Virus record (IMG/VR): IMGVR_UViG_2541047712_000002 | DNA from: a virus | Lineage: Duplodnaviria > Heunggongvirae > Uroviricota > Caudoviricetes | Length of the DNA: 64,000 bases | Strand: one strand, 5' to 3' | Shown here: positions 8,003-8,134 of the stretch, in pieces | How the letters are laid out: each line of letters opens with the position of its first letter | Position numbering within the stretch: the stretch's first letter is position 1 | The notes under the pieces: model-generated | Told to the model about the DNA's origin: nothing | What the model saw: only the letters and a program-made list of their open reading frames with translations | Databases searched by the model: none | Position numbers and translations under genes: made by a program

Positions 8003-8134
8003 GCCGGTTTAGCTCAGCGGGAGAGCGCGAGAGCCAAAGCATCGTTTCTACTTCGGTAGACAGCCTTGCTGGTCAAATGACAACGATTCGATGTTAGGCC
8101 AGAGGTCAGCGGTTCGAGTCCGTTAACCGGCACC
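8003..8134 (+). tRNA. atypical 132-nt tRNA-like gene (anticodon unassigned)
   Basis: acceptor gccggtt/aaccggc, D-arm gctc-agcggga-gagc, T-arm with ttcgagt loop and CCA are canonical, but about 55 extra nt including a tctac-UUCG-gtaga tetraloop hairpin sit where the anticodon/variable region should be. Confidence 0.4.

Follow-up and report, generated by a model that had tools for sequence, protein, structure and literature searches.

The 64,000-nucleotide (nt) stretch of Caudoviricetes DNA considered here (IMG/VR virus record IMGVR_UViG_2541047712_000002; the whole of it is called the window below) carries, within a tRNA cluster, a 133-nt gene on the plus strand (8003-8135) that keeps the frame of a tRNA and has a 75-nt structured module where the anticodon arm should be. 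A tRNA-Thr(UGU) of this P1-like plasmid lineage had its anticodon arm swapped for the module. The same module occurs in 23 distinct variants, with a junction core that is invariant across unrelated phages. The gene belongs to a real, conserved and apparently undescribed family of tRNA-scaffolded RNAs for which the secondary-structure model is solid; no published description of the module came up in literature searches by topic or by sequence string. From sequence comparison, its product is on balance probably a non-decoding structured RNA in which a tRNA body serves as scaffold for a sequence-specific binding head.

An anticodon arm exchanged for a 75-nt module

The frame is that of a tRNA. 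The first-pass annotation had placed a 132-nt tRNA-like gene at 8003-8134, directly after tRNA-Tyr; its features are borne out, except that the gene ends at 8135 and is 133 nt long, and tRNA-Tyr does end at 7998, four bases upstream. The acceptor stem is perfect as claimed, GCCGGTT (8003-8009) pairing with AACCGGC (8125-8131) at 7/7 positions. U8 and A9, the D arm (GCTC/AGCGGGA/GAGC, 8012-8026) and G26 together occupy 8010-8027. On the far side of the module lie a canonical class I variable loop, AGGUC (8103-8107), which most variants keep, and a T arm with the TTCGAGT loop already noted (AGCGG/TTCGAGT/CCGTT, 8108-8124); the 3' strand of the acceptor stem, the discriminator A73 (8132) and an encoded CCA (8133-8135), again as described, complete the gene (8125-8135). 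Between D arm and T arm 81 nt were measured, against the estimate of roughly 80, and they include the hairpin TCTAC-TTCG-GTAGA (8047-8060) that had been picked out for its UUCG tetraloop. The hallmarks of a tRNA are thus present: a 7-base-pair (bp) acceptor stem, a D arm with GG, a T arm with UUCRA and a class I variable loop. At the anticodon the test for a canonical tRNA gives the opposite result, as there is no 5-bp anticodon stem, no 7-nt loop, no U33 and no anticodon.

What became of the anticodon arm can be read from relatives. This region of the window matches the P1-like phage-plasmids CMS-2020a, Cyrano, P7 and D6. The closest, CMS-2020a (flanks 98% identical), has an ordinary 76-nt tRNA-Thr(UGU) at exactly the same place, and P7 and Cyrano likewise have an ordinary tRNA-Thr(UGU) at this locus. 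Between the CMS-2020a tRNA-Thr and the module gene the acceptor stem (5' strand GCCGGUU), the T arm and the spacers are all equal; the two alleles diverge only from the D loop (AGCGGGA in the window, AGTTGGTA in CMS-2020a) through position 43. Positions 27-43 of the tRNA-Thr, 17 nt in all, have been exchanged for 75 nt (8028-8102), and the CMS-2020a anticodon arm, CCUGC-CUUGUAA-GCAGG, is missing from the module allele. Because the original arm is absent, not interrupted, this was a replacement and not an insertion; the first-pass annotation was right that extra sequence is present, but its simple insert of about 55 nt does not describe the event.

Standard tools pass over the gene. Within the window the ARAGORN default run called three normal tRNAs and not this one, and the Rfam tRNA model did the same at gathering and at permissive thresholds; the ARAGORN search for transfer-messenger RNA (tmRNA) made no call either. 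The covariance models did not split the region into two partial tRNAs, a possibility raised at the outset, and Rfam 15 is without a model for the module RNA. In identical copies the RefSeq label of the 133-nt gene is 'tRNA-OTHER', with the PGAP type undetermined.

Only the intron mode of ARAGORN returns a tRNA, and it does so by force: a tRNA-Ser(cga) with a 54-nt intron at 30/31. The gene would then be an intron-containing tRNA, and splicing of the insert, by itself or by an enzyme, would leave a decoding tRNA for Thr or Ser(CGA). Such a reading would suit the undetermined type given by PGAP, the near invariance of the would-be anticodon loop UUCGAUN, the 'enigmatic introns' reported from phage tRNAs (PMC6784885), and the many insert-bearing phage tRNAs on viral contigs that keep a normal anticodon loop. 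However, the anticodon stem that ARAGORN proposes has 3/5 pairs in the window and 2-4/5 (mean 2.7) over 24 sequences, with no covariation; by inspection of splice positions, no single excision yields a 5-bp stem and a 7-nt loop beside G26 and the AGGUC variable loop; at locus L264 the stem runs straight into helix P1 of the module (described below), so that no loop is left; and the spliced product would have U at position 37. To these is added the comparison above, in which the arm of the tRNA-Thr is gone rather than interrupted. A group I intron would, as first argued, be far larger than the 75-nt module, and Rfam detects none; more generally, there was no Rfam match to an intron, ribozyme or riboswitch at E up to 10, the bulge-helix-bulge motif not being formally scored. 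Splicing to a decoding tRNA is very unlikely.

Fold and conservation of the module

The fold was drawn from a structural alignment of the 23 variants (A5), anchored on invariant motifs, in which P1, the acceptor stem and the T stem are fixed windows. From G26 the module continues as a long irregular stem, made up of the pair C27-G43, stem S1, a spacer and helix P1; the junction that caps P1 is four-way, and the short hairpins Pa, Pb and Pc are its other arms. In the window the 5' strand of S1 (8028-8038) consists of C27, paired with G8102, then GAGA (8029-8032), GCC (8033-8035) and the spacer AAA (8036-8038); GAGA lies opposite CA in a purine-rich asymmetric internal loop, and GCC pairs with GGC (8097-8099). 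The 5' strand of P1, GCAUCG, and the junction bases UU fill 8039-8046. Then come Pa (UCUAC-UUCG-GUAGA, 8047-8060), Pb (CAGC-CUU-GCUG, 8061-8071), Pc (GUC-AAAU-GAC, 8072-8081) and the junction strand AACGAUU (8082-8088); the 3' strand of P1, CGAUGU (8089-8094), a UA spacer, the GGC of S1, the CA of its internal loop and G43 make up the remainder (8089-8102). Folding of the window copy gives the Pa pairs a probability of 0.97-1.0.

Standard pairs are found in 98.2% of 844 cells of the alignment, and 21 of the 39 pairs are altered on both sides among the variants; in Pb, Pc and S1 the alignment was fitted to the structure, which inflates these counts, and in P1, the acceptor stem and the T stem it was not. 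The covariation score of 0.495 compares with 0.128 in shuffles and was reached by 0/500 of them, and when partners are slid by 1-3 columns 29-47% of cells pair. In the unfitted columns, the second pair of P1 is GC in nine variants, CG in six, AU in five, GU in two and UA in one; all seven pairs of the acceptor stem are altered on both sides, as are three of the T stem, where the equivalents of G53-C61 are invariant. Compensatory changes also affect three of the four pairs of Pb (GCC/GGC, GGUC/GAUC, CGC/GCG and CUGC/GCAG, for example) and two pairs of Pc (AGC/GCU, GG/CC, GGC/GCC). The S1 helix is 2-4 bp long across the family, and its GCC/GGC covaries with GGC/GCC, CGGC/GCCG and GGG/CCC; in L265 and L270 ordinary pairs take the place of the purine loop. 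The spacer between S1 and P1, an A-rich strand opposite a U-rich one, measures 0-7 nt; hence head and body do not stand at a fixed distance. This spacer is absent from a sub-family (L264, L267, L268, L274) that has a 9-bp acceptor stem, GAUGUGGUG/CACCACAUC.

Some other structures were considered and dropped. The helix CUGGUC/GGCCAG and the other minimum-energy pairings, including that of AACGAUUCGA with the T arm, disappear in members with another T stem. A K-turn and a GNRA-tetraloop receptor were considered for the internal loops and fail because these loops are not conserved, being regular helices in L265 and L270 and varying from 0 to 7 nt in the spacer.

The pattern of conservation is the reverse of that in a normal tRNA, with a mean pairwise identity of 0.40 in the acceptor stems, 1.00 in UU plus Pa, and 0.96 in AACGAUU. 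The core that is invariant across unrelated phages comprises the inner pairs of P1, UU, the UCUAC/GUAGA stem of Pa, and AACGAUU; the tRNA body, the stems of Pb and Pc, and the hairpin loops, that of Pa among them, vary freely. The Pa stem is 100% identical in the 23 variants, including those at loci found by Pa-free patterns; as the Pa-free scans returned only Pa-bearing members, this invariance is no artefact of the search pattern. In the tRNA body U8, A9 and A14 are invariant, and the Gs of the D loop are invariant or nearly so.

The same core permits a second pairing. Its 5' strand, AUCG(UU) (AUCGUU, 8041-8046), can pair either with the distal CGAU, which gives P1, or with the proximal AACGAU; the two are mutually exclusive, and both are possible in all 23 variants. 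The proximal helix can form in 99.3% of cells, and its sequence is invariant, which puts it beyond test by covariation. One might therefore suppose a switch or a catalyst, a ligand-sensing or self-cleaving head that toggles between two registers of P1; conservation concentrated at a multi-helix junction is what aptamers and small ribozymes display. This is unlikely, though: Rfam gives no ribozyme or riboswitch match, the proximal helix is without covariation, neither an expression platform nor a gene downstream that it could control is present, and self-cleavage would destroy the tRNA scaffold.

Relatives, frequency and locus

Sequence collections were scanned with patterns derived from the tRNA frame, from the head, from the stem beside the body, and from P1, Pc and the junction; the first collection scan, with 14 bases, had returned mainly chance matches. 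All true matches lie within a tRNA frame, and the rest are chance matches in coding DNA. Four matches from a scan of genome contigs also look like chance, with no ARAGORN tRNA at any of those loci. The variants number 24 if L291 is counted, where the acceptor strands are unpaired, and more than 12 different tRNA bodies carry them. The carriers are P1-like plasmids, N4-like phages and phages known from metagenomes (soil, water and gut), some of the phage contigs reaching 381 kilobases (kb); wild isolates with the module come from humans, pigs, hens and wild birds. The 133-nt gene itself, 100% identical, is present in six complete E. coli genomes, every copy on a plasmid of 106-115 kb. Variants 94-98% identical are found in P1-type plasmids of E. 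albertii and in Salmonella plasmids; the variant of the N4-like phage Jgk1 is 88% identical, and its acceptor and T stems are not the same. The body in Jgk1 and L276 is homologous to a tRNA-Ile-like gene at the syntenic locus of phages ST4 and PBM-3, which means that at least two resident tRNAs of different kinds, Thr and Ile-like, have received the module. PBM-3 (L140) also has a 73-nt 'tRNA-OTHER' at 2974-3046, with loop GUAAACU, that is a tRNA-Thr in the ST4 annotation and unrelated to the module.

A covariance model of the family gives 143 bits to the window copy, the only one in the window, and 115 and 113 bits to two distant members, L188 and L145; being a model of the whole RNA, it also hits every ordinary tRNA at 35-60 bits, and serves only to sort members (at least 113) from non-members (at most 60). 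This score, the copies in six E. coli genomes and flanks identical to those of a real tRNA gene put the window gene far beyond chance. Members differ in discriminator base, in acceptor sequence and in the encoded CCA, so that their acceptor ends give no sign of a common synthetase identity. The 30-odd module loci have no protein neighbour in common. The neighbours at L145, L292 and L278/L285 and at L188 and L267 include NadV and an NMNAT/Nudix fusion (NAD salvage), as well as a Rad52-like protein next to a T7 gp5.9-like RecBCD inhibitor; these are neighbourhoods of counter-defence type, a weak hint at the decoy role guessed at below. At L294 two GOLLD RNAs (RF02032; 68-539 and 1009-1478, minus strand; 165 and 170 bits) lie beside a module-bearing tRNA array.

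The module is rare among sequenced isolates yet widespread across phage types. It was found in 11/202 matching plasmids, 6/5,426 E. coli genomes and 1/50,697 phage records. Rarity among P1-like plasmids, together with the inability to decode, could suggest a dead tRNA-Thr, a recombination scar without function. Against such decay stand the retention of one module on many tRNA bodies in unrelated phages, the compensatory changes and invariant core of the 23 variants, and the preservation of the nucleotides that make tertiary contacts in tRNA; a dead gene is hardly credible. Nor does a permuted tRNA fit, as the 5' and 3' ends form the acceptor stem in normal order. Among the four options put forward in the first-pass annotation, 'tRNA-derived regulatory RNA' comes closest, and the intron-containing, permuted and decayed tRNAs are unsupported.

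The tRNA cluster of the window (7832-8446, plus strand) consists of tRNA-Asn (7832-7906), tRNA-Tyr (7912-7998), the module RNA and tRNA-Ser(UGA) (8360-8446); downstream, at 8603-8622, a hairpin followed by a T run reads as an intrinsic terminator. In the P7 annotation a bivalent C1 operator controls the tRNA-ban operon. In true P1-type plasmids (e.g. L007) the bivalent C1 operator lies upstream of the module RNA, which should there be made once the repressor is lifted, to judge from this arrangement. A search of the window allowing up to three mismatches found no P1 C1 operator.

Other features of the window deserve brief mention. The ~780 nt upstream of the cluster (7055-7830) are rich in inverted repeats, have no convincing open reading frame (ORF) and no Rfam match; the equivalent stretch of Cyrano is likewise without an annotated coding sequence. 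The 225-nt spacer from the module RNA to tRNA-Ser (8136-8359) is ~95% conserved in P7 and D6 and without annotated feature; another RNA may lie there. The tRNA-Ser(UGA) scores 46.6 bits on the Rfam tRNA-Sec model (threshold 47), an effect of its long variable arm and not of selenocysteine. A full-length match to the cspA thermoregulator (25927-26345, minus strand; RF01766, 187.6 bits) implies that the phage-plasmid carries a 5' untranslated region of cold-shock type.

Possible functions and comparison with known RNAs

One way to account for so complete a frame is aminoacylation: the RNA would be a charged tRNA-like molecule acting in or on translation, in the manner of tmRNA, as a binder of the ribosome or EF-Tu, or as a donor in non-ribosomal aminoacyl transfer. 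The minihelix of acceptor and T arm is intact, with its elbow nucleotides and encoded CCA. The tRNA-like domain of tmRNA combines an acceptor and a T arm with a long helix at the anticodon-arm position, which the module RNA recalls. The module RNA nevertheless has neither the alanine identity pair (3:70 is C-G in the window, not G3:U70) nor the tag reading frame and pseudoknots of tmRNA, and ARAGORN finds no tmRNA. Acceptors and discriminators differ between members, with no single conserved synthetase identity; threonyl-tRNA synthetase (ThrRS) requires the anticodon, and this is gone. A mini-ORF, AUG ACA ACG AUU CGA UGU UAG, is lost in Jgk1, L145 and L188. Its product MTTIRC and the runs of Thr codons in the junction strand, considered as candidates in themselves, were dropped as unconserved in the same three. 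An aminoacylated role is improbable.

A second proposal begins from the head. The invariant UUUCUAC-NNNN-GUAGA (8044-8060 in the window) equals the core of the repeat handle of Cas12a (type V-A), and the RNA might be a decoy of the anti-CRISPR type, in which a mimic of the handle of the CRISPR RNA is presented by a tRNA body. RNA anti-CRISPRs (Racrs) are small phage-encoded RNAs that mimic a host RNA hairpin (PMC10651486); prophage-derived mimics of V-A repeats inhibit Cas12a, and the invariance of the helix sequence suggests a protein that reads sequence. Twelve invariant bases correspond to -17 to -11 and -6 to -2 of the V-A repeat ...AAATTTCTACTGTTGTAGAT (PMC10651486 supplement). The flanking bases differ, however: -19/-18 are C/U-G and not AA, -1 is mostly C (G or U in a few) and not the repeat's U, and the first base of the Pa loop is not conserved. 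The match amounts to 12/19 handle positions with nothing upstream, whereas Racrs show near full-length identity to the CRISPR repeat, from 25/29 to 36/36, and verified Racrs match 34-36/36 repeat bases (PMC10651486). P1, Pb, Pc and AACGAUU would be left unexplained, and given the many known hairpins a seven-base coincidence is possible. No V-A system is known from the E. coli, Salmonella and E. albertii hosts. The resemblance is a lead only, a weak hint from sequence, and a Cas12a decoy is distinctly unlikely.

The favoured reading, a non-decoding RNA with a tRNA body and a binding head, divides the labour between the two parts. The RNA would be transcribed together with the neighbouring tRNAs, and its ends would be matured as theirs are: RNase P would cut at G8003, and the 3' end would be trimmed at the encoded CCA. 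The body would act as a handle for processing and stability. Without an anticodon loop, codon reading should be impossible. The working part would be the invariant head, a sequence-specific binder of some protein or RNA common to many bacteria or phages, and we would guess at a role as decoy or sponge in host takeover or counter-defence. The module could spread as a cassette by gene conversion through the D-arm and variable/T-arm sequences conserved in all tRNAs, a likely route because only the inner part of the gene changes. More speculative is the full scheme, in which a mobile cassette turns resident phage tRNA genes into effector RNAs whose junction head sequesters a conserved host factor or defence protein, an RNA-only device for counter-defence or host takeover; we hold this tentatively, as a possibility that may well prove wrong.

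Several points weigh against the favoured reading. Its binding partner and biological role are guesses. Neighbours of counter-defence type (NAD salvage, the gp5.9-like RecBCD inhibitor) occur at some loci only, and the module is rare in each collection (11/202, 6/5,426 and 1/50,697). Folding of the single sequence favours another fold, at -50.8 kcal/mol against -39.2 for the comparative structure; the pair counts are inflated in the helices fitted to the structure, Pb, Pc and S1. The alternative P1 register is possible in every member, and the head, instead of a static platform, may be a dynamic element.

The module RNA fails the defining tests of every family considered. T4 species 1 and 2 (rnaC, rnaD) are, like it, encoded inside a phage tRNA cluster; they are small stable RNAs and are matured together with the tRNAs, and rnaC has a T-arm-like CCGGG-TTCGAAT-CCCGG. 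Compared by eye, the T4 RNAs show no full acceptor/D/T cloverleaf around a replaced anticodon arm, and searches with the whole RNA and with the module gave no T4 match. YrlA (RF02553), also found in phages, joins a tRNA-like domain through the anticodon-stem position to a second functional stem module. It is permuted, with a closed acceptor and with an effector stem made by the two RNA ends; in the module RNA it is the module that is closed, and the two ends make the acceptor. Rfam finds no YrlA in the window; a resemblance seen in relatives, at 31 bits against a threshold of 69, proved an artefact spanning two adjacent tRNA-like genes. Nearest in design is the engineered 'tRNA scaffold' that Ponchon and Dardel reportedly introduced in 2007, in which a cargo RNA replaces the anticodon arm and the cell is said to process and stabilise the product as a tRNA; that scaffold is man-made, whereas the module RNA is natural. 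The Lak megaphages have tRNAs with 'enigmatic introns' (Devoto et al. 2019, PMC6784885). These phage tRNA genes too are oversized and have, at the anticodon arm, additional conserved sequence that standard tools and Rfam do not recognise; they differ in sequence and fold, and the Lak inserts leave an anticodon arm that can be reconstituted, whereas the module replaces it.

Other oversized phage tRNAs turned up beside the family. Genes of ~120-128 nt at twelve loci (L210, L193, L202, L208, L252, L155, L235, L176, L219, L222, L166 and L209) have a different insert, a hairpin and then ACAGCAA, that splits the 5' strand of the anticodon stem at 28/29 or 29/30; the anticodon loop stays normal (Thr UGU, Lys UUU and others). 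Six more (L148, L165, L178, L203, L250 and L180) hold a 'tRNA inside tRNA', the anticodon-region stem being capped by a T arm and a D arm; this permuted, YrlA-like tRNA mimic matches the Lak 'enigmatic intron' (PMC6784885). Two further classes of anticodon-arm insert, of 45-70 nt, occur at L144, L196 and L256 and at L143, L150, L153, L236, L260 and L215; one is in tRNA-Lys(UUU) with GUUAC repeats, and a UUCAACU hairpin lies inside the other.

Phage tRNA genes are as a rule interpreted solely as devices for codon supply or against nucleases. Here a phage gives up a tRNA-Thr to carry a conserved RNA domain on its frame, and the grafting of that domain onto other tRNAs in unrelated phages points to a function that has been selected repeatedly. 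Recombination through the conserved arms of tRNAs would be a simple route for the spread of RNA modules. The recurring 'tRNA-OTHER' annotation is explained, and a defined family becomes a candidate for addition to RNA family libraries. As the carriers include phage-plasmids of E. coli, E. albertii and Salmonella, which are open to culture and engineering, function is directly testable. If the cassette reading is true, phages would possess a natural counterpart of the engineered tRNA scaffold.

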